64,000 nt of DNA from Alphaproteobacteria bacterium (GCA_965261735.1 OZ253470.1:3296001-3360000); one strand, 5' to 3'. Positions 15,109 through 21,300 are shown, counted from the stretch's first letter. The notes: generated by a model from the sequence alone, not told the origin. A program made the numbers and translations.

Positions 15109-15228
15109 AGGTCGCACGAACGTAAAGAGAGGCACGACGCGGGCGCCGTACCGTCCTCGCGCGACATGTTAATCTTCTTCGCCGACAATCGCCCGCGCAC
15201 GCCGACGCCGAGAAGGAGATGCGGCGCA

Positions 15229-15660
15229 TGGCCGATGACGGCCGGGACGAATCCGCGGGCGTGGCCGAAACGGTCTTCTTCGCGAAAACGTTCGACGACA
15301 CGCTCGCCCTTGTCACGGACGCCCGCGACTACTTGGCGACGCAGGCCGCGGCGGAGATGCGCCCCCTCCCCGGCACCACGGCGCTCGCCTATACCCACGA
15401 AGCGCTGCGACTCACCTGCCGGCTGAGCCACGCGATGGCCTGGCTGCTGGTTCAGCGCGCGGTGCTTGCCGGCGAAATCACGCGGGCGGACGCGGGGCGA
15501 GAGGAATTTCGCCCGGCCGACCTCACGAGCGTGCTGTGCGAGCCGCCGCTGCTCGCGGCCGGCATGCCGCCAGCGCTGAGCGCGCTGCTCGAACGGGGGC
15601 CGCGCCTTGTCGCTCCGCATCGCCCGGCTCGACGAGCTAGCGATGCGCGACCAAGCGTGA
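15229..15660 (+). pseudogene. rcdA: DUF1465 / RcdA regulator of CtrA degradation, 1-bp frameshift in a G-run near the 3' end (possible sequencing error)
   Basis: TFDDTLALVTDARDYL, EALRLTCRLSHAMAWLLVQRAV; shifted frame continues RALSLRIARLDE...*. Confidence 0.75.
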
Positions 15661-15776
15661 GTCGCGGCCGCCCGCCTCCCCGAACCATTTCCACGCCTGC
15701 GCTCAGCCGGAGGTTGCGAACGGGGATGCATCGTGGATGAAGGCCGTCGTAGGATGGCTTTGTGAAGCATGGGGTG

Positions 15777-16556
15777 ATGCAATCGGCAAAGTTACTCGCC
15801 GCCGCAATGACAGCGGCGCTGGCGGCCTCGCACGCGGCGGCCGAGGAACCGAATTACCCAGTTTGGTGATCGCCGGTGCTCGAGCTTGAAAGCATCGACG
15901 ATATCGATGCCCGTCTGTCGAAGCGCTTTGTGGACAGCGGCAAAGGCGCGCCCGTTCACAAGGGCAAAGGGGCCGACCGTAAGACCGAATACGTGGACAG
16001 TTGCGCCTCTCTCGCCCGGTGGTCAGAGCACGGCTACAGCGCCCTCGCGAATGTGTACCTGAAGTTTTTGCACTATCAAGAGGCCACTTGCCGCATCATT
16101 GAACTGCTGCGGAGCGCGAAGCCCGCGCGCACGAGCTTTGTGCGGGAGTTCGCGCTCGACGGCGACGCCCTCGACTACCTGCCGGACATGGTCAATCTCT
16201 CACCCTCGTGCGAGGGGGCAGGCTGGCAATTCCAGGCCAACGAAAAGAGCATCCCGCTTACGCAACACTCTGAGATCAGCGAGCTGCAAGTGGTGGGCTC
16301 TAACCGGATCGAGTTCGACACGGATGGAGACTTCACGAGTGTAGAAGCGATGGCGCGGGCCGATTTCAATGGCGACGGGCTTGATGATCTGGTGGTGCGA
16401 GTATCGGTGGAGCTTGCGCACGGAACATGGGGGGCGACCACCGATTTAGTGCTGTCGCGCGCCTCGCCTCGCGCCGTCCTCAGAGTCCTCGATGCCGCCA
16501 AGGAACTCTGCCCCGGTTACGACTATCCCTTCGACCACCCCGACCCTGGCGGATAG
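15777..16556 (+). pseudogene. Secreted hypothetical protein, paralog 1 (in-frame TGA at 15867)
   Basis: Signal-peptide-like MQSAKLLAAAMTAALAASHAAA; YPVW*SPVLEL vs YPVWWS in the paralogs; DFNGDGLDDLV loop. Confidence 0.8.
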
Positions 16557-16561
16557 GCCCG

Positions 16562-16660
16562 CTAGACGTACCACTGTTTGAGGGCGTCTCGCTTGCCGGT
16601 GGGGTGGACGAAATGGGGCTCCCTTCTTGGCCGCCTCCTCGAATCACTTCCGCACTTGAG
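16562..16660 (-). repeat. Orphan copy of the lysozyme 3' end (degenerate)
   Basis: Near-identical to 19629-19725; encodes ...EPHFVHPTGKRDALKQWYV*; 1-bp insertion and TGG>TGA upstream. Confidence 0.88.
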
Positions 16661-16735
16661 CTCAGCCAGTGGTTGCGAGTGAGGATGTATCGTGGATGAG
16701 GACTGCCGTAGGATGTCTTCATGAGGCGTGGGGCG

Positions 16736-17482
16736 ATGCAATCGGCAAAGCCAGCTATGGCCGCGGTGATCGCGGCGCTGGCGGGCTTGCCCGCGTCGCG
16801 GCCGGTGGCCGCAAACGAACTTTACCCCGTGTGGTGGTCGCCGGTGCTGGAGCTTGAAAGCCTCCACGACATCGACGAGAGGCTTGCGCGGAAGTTCAAG
16901 TACCCCTTCACCGCCTACAAGGGCAGGGGCGCGGAGCGCAAGAGCGCCCACGTCGACAACTGCAACTCCCTCAAGCACTGGTGGGCCCAAGGCTATGCCG
17001 ACGCGGTGAGCTCGGACCGGTTGATTTCGCTCTATGATTTGGTTGGCTGCCGCATCATCGAACTGCTGCGCCGGGCGAAGCCCGCGCGCACGAGCTTTGT
17101 CCGAACGTTCATGCTCGACACCGAAGCGGTCAACTACCTTCCGGCGATGGTCGATTTGGAGCCGTTTACCAGTCGAGTAAAATGGCAATGCGAGGCTAAT
17201 GAAAAGGGCATCCCGCTGGCCCGCGCCTCCAACGTGAGCAAACTAAAGGTCATCGGCCCAAATGAGATGAAGTTCGAGTCGCCAGGAATGAGCGTCGGTG
17301 TTGAGCTGATGGCGCGCGGCGACTTCAATGGCGACGGGCTCGATGACCTGGTAGTGCGGGTGAGGGGGCGCGCGACGGGGGGAACTTGGGGGGCGACGCG
17401 GCACTTCCTATTGTCGCGCGCGACTTCGCAAGCCGTATTGCGAATCCTGAATACCGCCGAGATAAGGGCTTGCCGAACCTAG
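16736..17482 (+). CDS. Secreted hypothetical protein, paralog 2
   Basis: Signal-peptide-like N-terminus; YPVWWSPVLELES, CRIIELLR, MARGDFNGDGLDDLVVRV, GTWGAT. Confidence 0.85.
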   Translation: MQSAKPAMAAVIAALAGLPASRPVAANELYPVWWSPVLELESLHDIDERLARKFKYPFTAYKGRGAERKSAHVDNCNSLKHWWAQGYADAVSSDRLISLYDLVGCRIIELLRRAKPARTSFVRTFMLDTEAVNYLPAMVDLEPFTSRVKWQCEANEKGIPLARASNVSKLKVIGPNEMKFESPGMSVGVELMARGDFNGDGLDDLVVRVRGRATGGTWGATRHFLLSRATSQAVLRILNTAEIRACRT

Positions 17483-18561
17483 TGGATTGATTCCAACGTT
17501 TGGAACCCTCTGTTTCGTGCGGCGATGATATGATCGGGGTCGGCTTTCCAGATGAAGGGTTTTGGGTTTGCGTCATTGTATTCGCGGACAAATCGGTTGA
17601 TGGCGTCCTGAAGGTCGACGACGGATTGGAAGACGCCGTATTTGAGCCTGCGCCGCGTTAGTTTGGCGAAGAAGCCCTCGACGGCATTGAGCCACGAGCA
17701 CGAGGTTGGCGTGAAGTGGAAGGTCCAGCGTGGATGGCGGGCGAGCCAGGCGCGGACCTTGTCCTTCTTGTGCGCGGCGTAGTTGTCGAGGATGACGTGG
17801 ACGGCCTTGTCCGTCGGCACCTCGCGCTCGATGCGGTTGAGGAAGCGGATGAACTCCTGATGGCGGTGGCGCTGCATGTTCTGTGCGATGACCGTACCGT
17901 CCAGCACGTTGAGCGCGGCGAACAGCGTCGTCGTGCCATGCCGTTTGTAATCATAGGTCATCGTACCGGCGCGGCCCTTCTTCATCGGCAAGCCGGGTTG
18001 GGTGCGGTCGAGCGCCTGGATCTGTGATTTCTCATCAACCGACAGCACCACGGCATGGGCCGGCGGATCGACATACAAGCCGACGATATCTGTGAGCTTC
18101 TCGGCGAAGGCGGGATCATTGGAGAGCTTGAAGTGCCGCCAGCGGTGCGGGCTGAGGCCATGGGCCTTCCAGATCGCTTGGACCGTCGACGCCGCGACGC
18201 CAGCAACCTTCGCCATCGCGCGCAGCGTCCAGTGGGTCGCCTCGTGCGGCGGCGCTTGCTGGGTCAGGCGGACGATCTCGGCGACGCGCTCCGGCGGGAT
18301 CGGCGCTTTGCCAGGCGGACGGGACCTGTCGCGAAGCAAGCCGTTGACACCCTCGTGCATGAACCGCTCCTGCCAGCGCCAGACACAGGTCTTGGACTTG
18401 CCGGTCTCGGCCATGATCGACGAGTTCCCGAGCCCCTCGTCGCTCTTCAGGATGATCCGCGCCCGCCAGACATGTTTCTGCGAGCTCTTCGGGTCCGCGA
18501 CGATAGCTTGCAATCGCTGACGGTCGCCAGACGTGACAGTAAAATGGATGCCGGTGCGCAT
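17479..18561 (-). CDS. IS630-family transposase (appears intact)
   Basis: VDEKSQIQAL, YKRHGTTTLFAAL, ILDNYAAHK, SWLNAVEGFF. Confidence 0.95.
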   Translation of the reverse strand: MRTGIHFTVTSGDRQRLQAIVADPKSSQKHVWRARIILKSDEGLGNSSIMAETGKSKTCVWRWQERFMHEGVNGLLRDRSRPPGKAPIPPERVAEIVRLTQQAPPHEATHWTLRAMAKVAGVAASTVQAIWKAHGLSPHRWRHFKLSNDPAFAEKLTDIVGLYVDPPAHAVVLSVDEKSQIQALDRTQPGLPMKKGRAGTMTYDYKRHGTTTLFAALNVLDGTVIAQNMQRHRHQEFIRFLNRIEREVPTDKAVHVILDNYAAHKKDKVRAWLARHPRWTFHFTPTSCSWLNAVEGFFAKLTRRRLKYGVFQSVVDLQDAINRFVREYNDANPKPFIWKADPDHIIAARNRGFQTLESIH

Positions 18562-18630
18562 AGCACAGACTCGCATGACACCGCACAATACGGAATCTCA
18601 AATCGGACTCTTTCGTTCCGATCAATCCAC
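17482..18630 (-). mobile_element. IS630-family IS
   Basis: IRs GTGGATTGAT / ATCAATCCAC flanked by duplicated TA (17480-17481, 18631-18632). Confidence 0.92.
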
Positions 18631-18673
18631 TAGGACTGCCCCGCCGGCCAGGCCGCCATACGGGGCTCTTGAA

Positions 18674-18772
18674 CTAGACATACCACTGCTTGAGGGCGTC
18701 TCTTTTGCCGCTGGGGTGAACGAAATGGGGCTCCCTCTTAGCCGCCTCCTCGAACCAGTGGCGTACCTGGTC
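18674..18772 (-). repeat. Orphan copy of the lysozyme 3' end (open frame)
   Basis: Encodes DQVRHWFEEAAKREPHFVHPSGKRDALKQWYV*; no start codon. Confidence 0.88.
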
Positions 18773-18845
18773 TCAGCCAGGGGTTGCGGACACCGGCAGG
18801 CGGGAGATAATTAGCCTCGAGGATCACCGGTAGAGGACTCCGGTA

Positions 18846-19622
18846 ATGCGAGCAGCAACGGCCGGGGCGGCAGCGTTAGCCGCGATGCTCGTGGCAGCGC
18901 CGGCGCTGGCGACCGAGCGCTACCCCGTGTGGTGGTCGCAGGCGCTGGAGCTTCAAAGCCTTGACGACATCGATACCCGTCTGTCGAGGCCCTTTGTGAC
19001 CAGGGGTAAGGGCGCCCCCGTCTACAAGGGTAAGGGGGCGGACCGCAAAACCGAGTATGTAAACAGTTGCGCCTCTCTCTTCCGGTGGTCAGAGCAAGGC
19101 TACAGCGCCTTCGCGAACGTTTATCTGAAGGCCTTGAATTATCAGAAGGCCACATGCCGCATCATCGAGTTGCTGCGCGACGCCAAGCCGGCGCGCATGA
19201 GCCATGTGCGCACGTTCACGCTCGACGCCGAAGCGATCAACTACCTGCCGGCGATGGTCGATCTGCATCCGCTGTGTGGCGCGGTGGGCCCGCAATATTT
19301 GGCTAACGACAAAGGCATCCCGTTGGCTCAGTTTTCAAAGGTCGGCAAGGTCGAGGTTATCGGACCCCACGAGATGCGGCTCGACTCGGTCGGATCGCGC
19401 GTCCGAGTCGCGACGATGGCACGCGGCGACTTCAACGGCGACGGGCTCGATGATCTGGTCGTTCGGGTTTCTGCCCACGTGACGGACGGCACTTGGGGGG
19501 CGACCACTTATCTAACGTTGTCACGTGCCTCGCCCGGCGTCGTCCTCCGGGTTCTCGATGCTGCCAAGGAATTGTGCCGGGATTACGACTACCCCTTCGA
19601 CCACCCAGAACCTGGCGGATAG
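18846..19622 (+). CDS. Secreted hypothetical protein, paralog 3 (candidate cognate lysozyme inhibitor)
   Basis: Signal peptide MRAATAGAAALAAMLVAAPALA; same family motifs; convergent with the lysozyme, 6 bp apart. Confidence 0.85.
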   Translation: MRAATAGAAALAAMLVAAPALATERYPVWWSQALELQSLDDIDTRLSRPFVTRGKGAPVYKGKGADRKTEYVNSCASLFRWSEQGYSAFANVYLKALNYQKATCRIIELLRDAKPARMSHVRTFTLDAEAINYLPAMVDLHPLCGAVGPQYLANDKGIPLAQFSKVGKVEVIGPHEMRLDSVGSRVRVATMARGDFNGDGLDDLVVRVSAHVTDGTWGATTYLTLSRASPGVVLRVLDAAKELCRDYDYPFDHPEPGG

Positions 19623-19628
19623 GTCGGG

Positions 19629-20522
19629 TTAGACGTACCACTGTTTGAGGGCGTCTCGCTTGCCGGTGGGGTGCACGAAATAGGGCTCCTTCTTGGCCGC
19701 CTCCTCGAACCACTGCCGCACCTGCGTGTTACGCTCTTCGGGCGCCTGCCTGCGTCCAGATTCCTTAGCCGCCCTTTTCCAGTCCCGCATGGCAACGGCT
19801 TTTCTGAATTCCGGGAATCCATACTCTTCAGCCGACATGAAGATTTTTTCGACGCCCGCATTGTAGGCGATGTCCAGGAGGCCGAGCTTGGCCGTGGGCG
19901 GGAAGGTGTCGAAGCCCGAGAACTCGGTCTTCTGCTTGAGCGCCCCTATCGTTTGCCAGATGTCGAGCACCGCGAGGTCGCCGACGTCGTTCTTCGACAT
20001 CCTGATTTCGGTCAGGGGTTCGAACACGGTGAAAATCCTGTCTTTTAGATCCTGTCTCTTCTTGACCGCTTCATAGGCCTGTCTGATGGCCTCTGCCGTC
20101 GCCGGCTCCTCGTAGTCAATCCCCGGCCGCGCCCAATAGAAACGCAGTTGCTGCGCCGCCTGCGCGCTCTCGATCAGGTGGCCGAGGCCCACGGTCACGT
20201 TGCCCTCGCTATCGAGATACATATACTGGACGCGTCCTTCGGACCTTTCCAGCTGATCGAAATATTCCTTCTCGATGTCCTTCCACGGGAAGGGCGGCCG
20301 CAGCCCAGTGTTGAAAATCTGCTTGAGCTTGGCGTCGCGAACGACGTAGCCCGTACCGCGCTCGACCAGGATGTGTTTGTGCCACTTCCAGTGGTAGGCC
20401 CAGGCGGCAAGCTTCTTCAGGCGCTCGGCGATGTAGTCCGGCTTGACCTTGAACTTGGTGAAACCGGCGTGGCGCGCGTCTTTCTTCTCGATGTTCCGGG
20501 CCTCGATCATGAAGCTCATCAC
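19629..20522 (-). CDS. T4-lysozyme-like muramidase with unknown N-terminal domain
   Basis: EGRVQYMYLDSEGNVTVGLGHL has E-x8-D-x5-T spacing as in T4 lysozyme E11/D20/T26; LLDIAYNAG and DWKRAAKES helices. Confidence 0.85.
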   Translation of the reverse strand: MMSFMIEARNIEKKDARHAGFTKFKVKPDYIAERLKKLAAWAYHWKWHKHILVERGTGYVVRDAKLKQIFNTGLRPPFPWKDIEKEYFDQLERSEGRVQYMYLDSEGNVTVGLGHLIESAQAAQQLRFYWARPGIDYEEPATAEAIRQAYEAVKKRQDLKDRIFTVFEPLTEIRMSKNDVGDLAVLDIWQTIGALKQKTEFSGFDTFPPTAKLGLLDIAYNAGVEKIFMSAEEYGFPEFRKAVAMRDWKRAAKESGRRQAPEERNTQVRQWFEEAAKKEPYFVHPTGKRDALKQWYV

Positions 20523-20687
20523 CGCTCTCCCGCGTTTGATGCGTTACGCATCATTATACGATACGTTAGGAGACGTGTGAATTCATAACGAATTGGGGAA
20601 TACGGGCGCGGGAGGGCGCGTCGATGAGCGCGATTGTTGGCGGGCGGGCGTCGATTCAGCCGAGCTTATGCGGAGGGACGCGGCGAG

Positions 20688-20832
20688 GCCCACCCTTCGA
20701 CAGGCTCAGGGTGAGGCGGAGTCTGGTGCCGGCCTCACCCTTCGACAGGCCCAGGGTGAGGAGCCGCACCAACCCTCATGCTGAGCTTGTCGAAGCAGGA
20801 GCGCCAGCAGGCCCACCCGTTGACAGGCTCGG
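20688..20832. repeat. REP-like repeat cluster
   Basis: CCCTTCGACAGGCTCAGGGTGAGG x2, an inverted CCTCATGCTGAGCTTGTCGAAG and a degenerate fourth unit. Confidence 0.8.
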
Positions 20833-20943: not shown

Positions 20944-21168
20944 CTATTTGAGGCCGAAGCCCTCGAAGCGCTTCTGGAACTTGGCCACCTGGCCGCCGGT
21001 GTCGACGAGGCGCAGGCCGCCGCCGGTCCAGGCCGGGTGCGACTTGGGGTCGATGTCGAGCTTGAGCACGTCGCCCGCCGCGCCCCAGGTCGAGCGGGTC
21101 GTGAAGGTGGTGCCGTCGGTAAGCACCACCGTGATTTCGTGGTAGTCCGGGTGGGTGTCTTTCTTCAT
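20944..21168 (-). CDS. rpmE: 50S ribosomal protein L31
   Basis: [10 protein letters not shown]...[14 protein letters not shown]...KFQKRF. Confidence 0.96.
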
Positions 21169-21300
21169 CGGGCGAGCCTCTTGTGGACGGCGCACGGTTT
21201 ATAGGCGACGCCGCGCGCGCTGGCAAGCGCCGCCGACTTGTTGGCGGCACCCAGGATTGCTAGGCTCGCGCTCCTTGGACTGCGGCAGCGGGATCGCCAT

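Follow-up and report, generated by a model that had tools for sequence, protein, structure and literature searches.

A T4-lysozyme-like gene convergent with an array of exported paralogs in an alphaproteobacterium: a candidate toxin and a candidate new family of immunity proteins

RESULTS

Layout of the islet

We analyzed a 64,000-nucleotide stretch of DNA from an alphaproteobacterium (GCA_965261735.1 OZ253470.1:3296001-3360000), hereafter called the window. An islet of about 5 kb in this window, with a guanine-plus-cytosine (GC) content of ~0.60 compared with ~0.70 in its flanks, carries a gene for a T4-lysozyme-like protein (Lys) and three paralogous genes (P1, P2, and P3), which we interpret as a candidate peptidoglycan-cleaving toxin and its candidate exported immunity proteins. 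Lys, a predicted muramidase of 297 amino acids, is encoded on the minus strand at positions 19629 to 20522, and the P genes are on the plus strand. P3 (18846 to 19622; 258 amino acids) is intact and ends 6 bp from the Lys stop codon in a tail-to-tail arrangement. Its open reading frame (ORF), an AlphaFold2 model, and a complex model make it the candidate cognate periplasmic inhibitor. P2 (16721 or 16736 to 17482; 253 amino acids) is also an intact ORF and is a candidate orphan immunity gene of the "B type," named for its identity to the P gene at locus B described below. The translation of P1 (15777 to 16556) is 65% identical to P3. An in-frame TGA at 15867 to 15869 replaces the second Trp of the YPVWW motif found in the paralogs, and P1 is therefore a pseudogene.

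A piece of the lysozyme 3' end on the minus strand precedes each P gene. Orphan copies of 95 nt, recognized as a repeat family, were found at 16563 to 16658 and at 18675 to 18769, with 94% and 87% identity, respectively, to the 3' end of the Lys gene. The former has one 1-nt indel and its last 21 codons remain in frame; in the latter, 31 codons are still open. The remnant before P1, at the left edge of the islet (15661 to 15702), is partial: it retains just the final ~40 nt, which align with ~60% identity to the corresponding part of the other copies, and is truncated at the stop codon of the neighboring DUF1465 gene. Units of the repeat measure 959 nt and have a single junction in common, where the remnant meets the spacer upstream of P.

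An IS630-family insertion sequence (IS) occupies 17478 to 18634 on the minus strand, with 21-nt inverted repeats and a transposase gene at 17479 to 18588 that carries the Pfam DDE_3 and helix-turn-helix domains. The element is inserted at the P2 stop codon. Its insertion is polymorphic, as one run X18 contig joins 17478 to 18630 directly and skips 1151 nt. Near-identical IS630 transposase genes are present at other Lys/P loci of the genome.

An earlier note, made from the sequence of the window, had described an array of three plus-strand paralogs, each preceded by a piece of the lysozyme gene. The three ORFs and their kinship stand, with mutual identities of 52 to 65%, but P1 is a pseudogene and only two of the genes are intact. 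Likewise, the lysozyme pieces are two 95-nt copies and one partial copy, and the IS630 element between P2 and the next remnant had been overlooked.

The islet lies, as that note stated, between rcdA and rpmE. The left flank is a DUF1465 (RcdA-like) gene on the plus strand at 15219 to 15660 (Pfam PF07323; E = 5.8e-22), a family that we take to be that of RcdA. The right flank is rpmE, for ribosomal protein L31, on the minus strand at 20944 to 21195 (PF01197; E = 9e-25). Only ~100 bp separates rpmE from the DUF1465 gene in a genome of the sister genus (G002), thereby indicating that the islet is an insertion. The DUF1465 gene has a frame change near a G-run at ~15595, beyond which a different frame is needed to read the last ~20 codons. 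Comparison with the G002 orthologue recovered the conserved C terminus in this alternative frame (...RIARLDELAMRDQA, with TGA at 15658 to 15660); the change reflects either a genuine frameshift or a fault in the assembly.

Upstream of Lys, a sigma-70-like promoter match (TTCACA-17-TATAAT, minus strand, 20553 to 20581) agrees with the consensus at 11 of 12 positions and is a consensus match only. The promoter scan of the region gave 3 sites against 1.0 expected, and this site is 30 bp upstream of the gene. Between Lys and rpmE, at 20686 to 20830, are three palindromic copies of ~22 to 26 nt (CACCCTTCGACAGGC.CAGGGTGAGG) that resemble repetitive extragenic palindromic elements, and RNA and DNA contigs of several runs end or branch there.

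Lys has a T4-lysozyme fold

The AlphaFold2 model of Lys has a predicted local distance difference test score (pLDDT) of 85.1 and a predicted template modeling score (pTM) of 0.81. It shows the two-lobed T4-lysozyme fold, with 255 PDB matches at E ≤ 1e-3 in Foldseek; T4 lysozyme itself matched the model with a target-normalized template modeling score of 0.6 to 0.7 and a probability of 1.00. Residues E95, D104, and T110, spaced by 9 and 6 residues, show little or no variation in alignments of 19 and 11 relatives. This spacing is like that of the T4 lysozyme triad, which we take to be E11, D20, and T26. Relatives with 36 to 40% identity to Lys carry PF00959 and PF16754 (Pesticin). The 297-residue ORF and its fold bear out the single T4-lysozyme-like gene of the earlier note, and Lys is presumably enzymatically active.

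In addition to the lysozyme domain, Lys has a folded N-terminal extension of ~85 residues and a conserved C-terminal tail, both of which are missing in short-form relatives of ~195 residues. The N termini of the long-form proteins differ in length and sequence, and inspection by eye showed no common TonB-box-like motif or disordered stretch among them. Six long-form relatives have both a GTGC Cys in the N-terminal extension and an NPxC Cys in the C-terminal tail, and two, namely, the window Lys and P0008, have neither. This co-occurrence suggests a disulfide and thus a possible life outside the cytoplasm for these relatives. A stand-alone short-form relative (~200 residues) is encoded elsewhere in this genome (G000:C1:4566002-4566633) with no P gene nearby, and is possibly a prophage endolysin.

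The P proteins form an undescribed family

The P proteins begin with a Sec-type or lipobox-type leader, assigned by eye, followed by the YPVWW motif. Three Cys residues (Cys75, Cys104, and Cys244) and one RGDFNGDGLDD loop are conserved. The signal-like N terminus, the Cys residues, and the DFNGDGLDD loop that the earlier note had listed are thus seen in the alignment of all three paralogs, and the leaders predict a periplasmic location.

The claim that the paralogs match no recognized family also held, apart from an FG-GAP-like loop. Pfam FG-GAP matched the P loop at 22.1 to 23 bits (cutoff, 22.1) as a single motif, and Pfam gave nothing further for P. NCBIfam gave no matches for seven proteins, PHROGs gave none for Lys and P, and the ESM Atlas neighbors of P were unnamed clusters. 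The AlphaFold2 model of P3 (pLDDT, 81.5; pTM, 0.77) had no significant match among solved folds in a Foldseek search of the PDB (best E = 0.21). VIA-align, run widely on P against 48,161 chains, gave a best Z score of 4.7 for a Bacteroides type VI immunity protein (9jdd_B), which is within the chance range. An FG-GAP or integrin-type beta-propeller was considered and rejected, as there is one motif at the cutoff and the model consists of a helical half and one antiparallel sheet.

A profile search of 1.84 billion representatives yielded 198 P matches at E ≤ 1e-30 and 2,717 at E ≤ 1e-10. Relaxing the threshold to E ≤ 0.001 gave 16,894, a count raised by giant FG-GAP repeat proteins in which the loop alone matches. 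Family members are 230 to 290 residues long. These results argue for P as a candidate new immunity family of undescribed secreted proteins. At one locus (L031, 5911 to 8448), three P domains are fused in a single ORF of 845 codons beside Lys, and several representatives of 759 to 786 residues (P0043 to P0045) match the P profile in three to four stretches. The candidate immunity array thus also exists as a single polyprotein.

Linkage of Lys and P in this genome and beyond

Lys and P copies adjoin at six loci of this genome (A to F), and at the other loci there is only P or Lys has been lost. Locus A is the window, with the P array, remnants, IS630, and Lys. Locus B (1.353 Mb) has a frameshifted Lys and a P gene with two TAG stops; locus C (0.976 Mb) has a P fragment, P, and Lys; loci D (1.41 Mb) and E (2.916 Mb) have Lys and P copies; and locus F (0.778 Mb) has P, a lysozyme remnant, P, an IS, and a broken Lys. 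Loci D and E are recent duplicates, with 0.075 synonymous substitutions per synonymous site (dS). Locus G (1.70 Mb) has P only, and at locus I (3.94 Mb), a P fragment is left and an IS stands in place of Lys. Four Lys copies are intact. A ~253-nt element at G000:C1:1410632-1410884 has at least 19 further copies in the genome at ~99% identity and may be a miniature inverted-repeat transposable element or an IS end.

Among 61 genomes sampled around this one, P was found only in this genome and in G002. In G002, an intact long-form Lys gene next to gpmI converges on an array of P genes, within which a lysozyme remnant lies. Because this locus is syntenic with locus B beside gpmI, the Lys/P system predates the split of the two genera.

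Across a wider sample, P was used as a seed in one species-representative genome per species, giving 60 loci. Lys was the direct neighbor in 14 of them (7 convergent and 7 codirectional). Conversely, P adjoined Lys in 11 of 45 Lys-seeded metagenome loci (7 convergent, 3 codirectional, and 1 divergent), and one metagenome contig carried Lys with four to five P segments. Every long-form Lys observed had P beside it. This neighborhood tally, which the earlier note had proposed, shows linkage of Lys and P at many loci and in different genera and phyla, in either orientation.

Predicted complex and divergence of the paralogs

A complex prediction, also proposed in the earlier note, was made for P3. 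Lys with mature P3 scored 0.85, compared with 0.10 for the best of three controls. The mark of 0.85 was reached by 58 of 80 solved complexes and by 2 of 110 mismatched pairs, counts that hold only roughly here because custom unpaired alignments were used. Three runs agreed in at least 86% of contacts, with a partner pLDDT of at least 90. The modeled interface takes in Lys residues 93 to 96 and 104 to 106, and thus the catalytic Glu and Asp. In this model, P3 covers the catalytic cleft of Lys and would most likely block it, and binding and inhibition of Lys by P are predicted accordingly.

The P3 side of the modeled interface includes residues 87 to 100 and 140 to 147, which are the most variable parts of the paralogs. 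P2 is 30 to 34% identical to P1 and P3 over the predicted interface and 56 to 60% identical over the remainder of the protein. The paralogs have diverged to a dS of 0.90 to 0.99 with omega values (nonsynonymous to synonymous rate ratio) of 0.26 to 0.43. Such rapid change at the predicted interface is what surfaces that determine specificity would be expected to show.

P2 is 74% identical to the P pseudogene at locus B and 52 to 55% identical to P1 and P3, and the A-type and B-type Lys proteins are 66% identical. Because P2 is closer to the locus B gene than to its own neighbors, it is a probable orphan immunity gene of another type. The sequences suggest that P2 is kept intact while its home locus (B) decays.

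Lysozyme remnants and growth of the array

The 95-nt blocks of the window, that is, the two remnants and the gene's own 3' end (19630 to 19724), are 85 to 94% alike and stand beside P genes near silent-site saturation. The same block is among the best-kept parts between A-type and B-type Lys genes (0.85 to 0.92 versus ~0.75 overall). The remnants either come from distinct lysozyme alleles with a conserved 3' end or have been homogenized by gene conversion. We considered an RNA fold or a terminator as the cause of their retention. This was ruled out, as the fold z-scores of the remnants were +0.4 to +1.3, no better than those of shuffled sequences, and the scan found no terminator-like site in them.

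We propose a cassette that would consist of a P gene and the conserved last ~95 nt of the lysozyme gene, and the array would have grown by its copying or recombining. Recombination of the cassette with the 3' end of a resident lysozyme gene would add immunity genes and keep a single junction. We infer this growth from the shared junction observed in all units, which it matches.

Genomic context of Lys and P in relatives

The context of Lys differed between the short and long forms. Pfam was run on chosen neighbors in five of the seven codirectional loci (L035, L063, L066, L074, and L082), and type VI families were found in three of them. For these short-form pairs, Hcp was directly upstream in L063, VgrG and DUF2169 were directly downstream in L066, and TagH was in L082. 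In at least some relatives, short-form Lys is therefore type VI cargo. The flanks of the islet in the window contain no Hcp, VgrG, PAAR, or adaptor gene.

Some long-form and convergent loci have phage neighbors. In L037, a portal and Mu-F fusion gene immediately precedes long-form Lys and overlaps its start by 4 nt. In L030, Lys is embedded in a block of phage structural genes that includes a Phage_tail_2 tube gene and a match to a tail-protein PHROG. A viral contig from IMG/VR (L091) carries a convergent Lys/P pair near a gene similar to that of central tail fiber J. In this genome, a gene for a 334-residue coiled-coil protein with the lambda tape-measure C-terminal domain (PF09718; 23.9 bits, cutoff 23) lies on the minus strand at G000:C1:3943492-3944496 (L096 2493-3497). 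This is locus I, from which Lys has been lost; at loci D and E, copies or fragments of the gene are found just upstream of Lys. The gene at 3943492 to 3944496 has no other tail gene nearby, and no tape-measure-like gene was found beside Lys in the other fetched loci.

The window and most other convergent loci (L031, L032, L033, L038, and L041) lie among housekeeping genes with flanks free of phage genes. A tblastn search of 50,697 GenBank phage records gave no match to P3 (E ≤ 1e-3) or Lys (E ≤ 1e-5). The phage genes of L030 and L037 had no tblastn match in this genome, which lacks Mu-F and whose only two portal matches are weak and distant from the Lys/P loci.

DISCUSSION

Proposed function and points against it

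Taken together, we consider it fairly probable that Lys is a periplasm-acting, peptidoglycan-cleaving toxin and that the P proteins are exported immunity proteins binding over its cleft. Lys would cleave peptidoglycan in the periplasm, and the exported P proteins would bind over its catalytic cleft. P3 would be the cognate partner of the intact window Lys, P2 would be a retained orphan immunity against a second lysozyme type whose locus decayed, and P1 would be a dead copy. The core of this reading, a putative periplasmic lysozyme with a new group of exported inhibitors including an orphan copy, is well supported by the comparative and modeled evidence. The role of the pair may be either that of a weapon between bacteria or that of a phage-entry enzyme with its exclusion factor.

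Several observations weigh against this reading. Lys has no signal peptide, and its match to PF00959 (14.9 bits; E = 0.035) is below the cutoff of 22.3. Two of its copies in this genome, at loci B and F, are broken. There was no Lys within the flanks of 46 of the 60 P-seeded loci, and these 46 loci showed no recurring partner gene, just housekeeping synteny among related metagenome-assembled genomes. P was not found in 34 of the 45 Lys-seeded metagenome loci. The complex model was built on the unpaired alignments noted above. RNA evidence for Lys and P consists of two low-depth contigs of 150 to 280 nt, on P2 and on the Lys 3' end, among the contigs of four RNA-labeled runs, which mostly cover the IS and a repeat; the two could be DNA carryover. 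Finally, the genome is a single contig with 98% completeness, and searches of it gave no match for TssC (PF05943), VirB4, or phage sheath and found no Phage_tail_2 gene. Because these are absent, no route by which Lys could get to another cell is apparent. TssC was also missing from four of the five other genomes with convergent pairs, or five of six counting this one. Delivery here is not via a type VI or VirB-type IV system, and a phage-tail-derived route is our leading guess.

The earlier note had proposed an interbacterial muramidase with a new secreted inhibitor family in several copies. Linkage and the complex model support the muramidase and the inhibitor family, as do the absence of a known family or fold for P and the match of P2 to the partner of a second lysozyme. 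"Interbacterial" is unproven, as TssC, VirB4, and phage sheath are lacking here and some relatives lie among phage structural genes.

Alternative explanations

The phage neighbors of long-form Lys raise the possibility, unlikely but with an appreciable chance, that the pair is phage derived. Lys would be a virion- or tail-delivered lysozyme, perhaps a former one, that opens the wall for DNA entry. P would be a periplasmic anti-lysozyme blocking related phages or tail-like particles, the islets would be relics or morons, and the P arrays would be a defense stockpile. Spackle and gp5 of T4 provide a precedent (PMC7677548). The positions of Lys behind the portal and Mu-F gene and inside a structural block agree with this origin, as do the convergent pair near the J-like gene on the viral contig and the tape-measure-C-like gene at loci D, E, and I. 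The absence of TssC from five of six genomes with convergent pairs and the decay of Lys at loci B, F, and I while P copies persist point the same way. However, the window and five other convergent loci stand among housekeeping genes with phage-gene-free flanks, and the GenBank phage records held no match to P3 or Lys. Moreover, this genome lacks Mu-F and Phage_tail_2 and has just the two weak, distant portal matches, and no other fetched locus has the tape-measure-like gene beside Lys. Four Lys copies are intact, and that in the window has a good promoter match.

We regard as still less probable a diffusible bacteriocin of the pesticin type, in which Lys is released without a secretion system, P is the periplasmic immunity protein, and uptake into targets proceeds via an outer-membrane receptor by use of the N-terminal extension of Lys. 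Pesticin has a T4-lysozyme-like domain and a periplasmic immunity protein, as described in PMC3390615, and its gene pst converges with the immunity gene (34 bp apart there, 6 bp here). The Pesticin domain (PF16754) in relatives of Lys, the extra N-terminal domain of ~85 residues, and the lack of an injection machine in the genome are consistent with such a protein. Nevertheless, the long-form N termini are variable and share no TonB-box-like motif by eye, P is unrelated to Pim (hhalign probability, 0.06%), and the match of Lys to pesticin is weak and confined to the C-terminal lobe (probability, 25%). A lack of any functional pairing is very improbable in our view. P would then have its own secreted role, e.g., calcium-dependent surface binding, and would have been duplicated beside a leftover endolysin, where no duplication could span all of P without also cutting into the adjoining 3' end of the lysozyme gene. 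The 46 of 60 P-seeded loci without Lys, the junction common to all units, which fits simple tandem duplication, and the lack of a terminator or stable fold to account for remnant retention agree with this explanation. It is opposed by direct adjacency that recurs at many loci, in two orientations and across phyla; by a complex score far above the controls with an interface on the catalytic cleft; and by the predicted interface being the fastest-evolving part of P. An endolysin would also be expected to have a holin partner, and none was present in the flanks read, as the earlier note had observed.

Significance

The toxins that are important in a community can be recognized from its immunity proteins, which are also naturally occurring enzyme inhibitors of high affinity. 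P has no name, solved fold, or curated model, yet it stands beside T4-lysozyme-type enzymes in several phyla. If the toxin and immunity reading is true, P would be a marker for lysozyme-type toxins and orphan immunities in genomes without type VI systems and would add a new protein scaffold for lysozyme inhibition. The pair would also be a test case for a toxin that leaves and enters cells without a known machine. More tentatively, a large undescribed family of P anti-lysozymes might serve toxins delivered via type VI spikes, phage tails, and a novel route, with a repertoire shuffled at the toxin 3' end. As part of the same tentative proposal, long-form Lys, with its N-terminal extension and C-terminal tail, might be exported and imported by an undescribed route.

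Comparison with known systems

Pesticin is the nearest match in layout. Its activity domain is T4-lysozyme-like and its immunity protein, Pim, is periplasmic, according to PMC3390615. Pesticin and Pim resemble Lys and P in combining a muramidase without a signal peptide, an exported immunity protein encoded tail to tail, and no lysis gene (PMC3390615). On pPCP1 of Yersinia pestis, the pesticin immunity gene and pst are convergent and 34 bp apart, compared with 6 bp for Lys and P3; the convergent layout, which the earlier note had considered unusual, is thus not exceptional for enzymes of this class. However, P and Pim are unrelated (hhalign probability, 0.06%; E = 0.76), and P is twice as large. 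Lys matches pesticin weakly, in the C-terminal lobe only (probability, 25%), and has just the ~85-residue N-terminal extension in place of a receptor-binding and translocation region, with no evident TonB box. In addition, the P genes occur in arrays and at many chromosomal loci, unlike the pesticin immunity gene.

Type VI muramidase pairs provide a second comparison. Tse3-Tsi3, TssI2-TsiI2, and VgrG3cp-TsiV3cp each join a periplasmic glycoside hydrolase with an adjacent Sec-exported immunity protein that binds the active groove, as reported in PMC9620997, PMC9927483, and PMC3792639. The short-form Lys/P relatives beside Hcp, VgrG, or TagH are similar to these pairs. In contrast, TssC is absent here and Lys is a stand-alone protein, not a VgrG extension; furthermore, TsiI2 has 127 residues, whereas P has 230 to 290 and no family match.

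Spackle (gp61.3) of phage T4 is periplasmic and binds and inhibits the gp5 tail lysozyme (PMC7677548). P would be similar to it as a periplasmic inhibitor of an externally delivered T4-lysozyme-type domain. Unlike Spackle, the P genes are chromosomal, in arrays, and mostly outside prophages.

Orphan immunity arrays are an established idea from the T6SS (type VI secretion system) clusters of Vibrio cholerae and the Pantoea hcp island, as presented in PMC5361080 and PMC9796082. In those accounts, diverged immunity paralogs lie by one effector with effector remnants left behind, and an orphan has its match in the cognate immunity of a different type of effector, as does P2 (PMC5361080, PMC9796082). 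The proposed growth by a cassette of remnant and P would parallel the sequential-displacement model for Vibrio (PMC5361080) and the Pantoea arrays (PMC9796082). P also differs from the LprI-type lysozyme inhibitors named for Pantoea in PMC9796082. The P array differs from these arrays in being convergent with its effector and outside any secretion cluster, and it keeps the conserved 3' end of the effector, whereas the Vibrio and Pantoea arrays keep a 5' constant region. Orphan arrays of Rhs and contact-dependent inhibition (CDI) systems likewise use a conserved 5' region, and shuffling of the P array at the toxin 3' end would be their mirror image. Altogether, Lys and P represent a new family and an unusual variant, convergent and type VI independent, of a known kind of system rather than a new kind of system.

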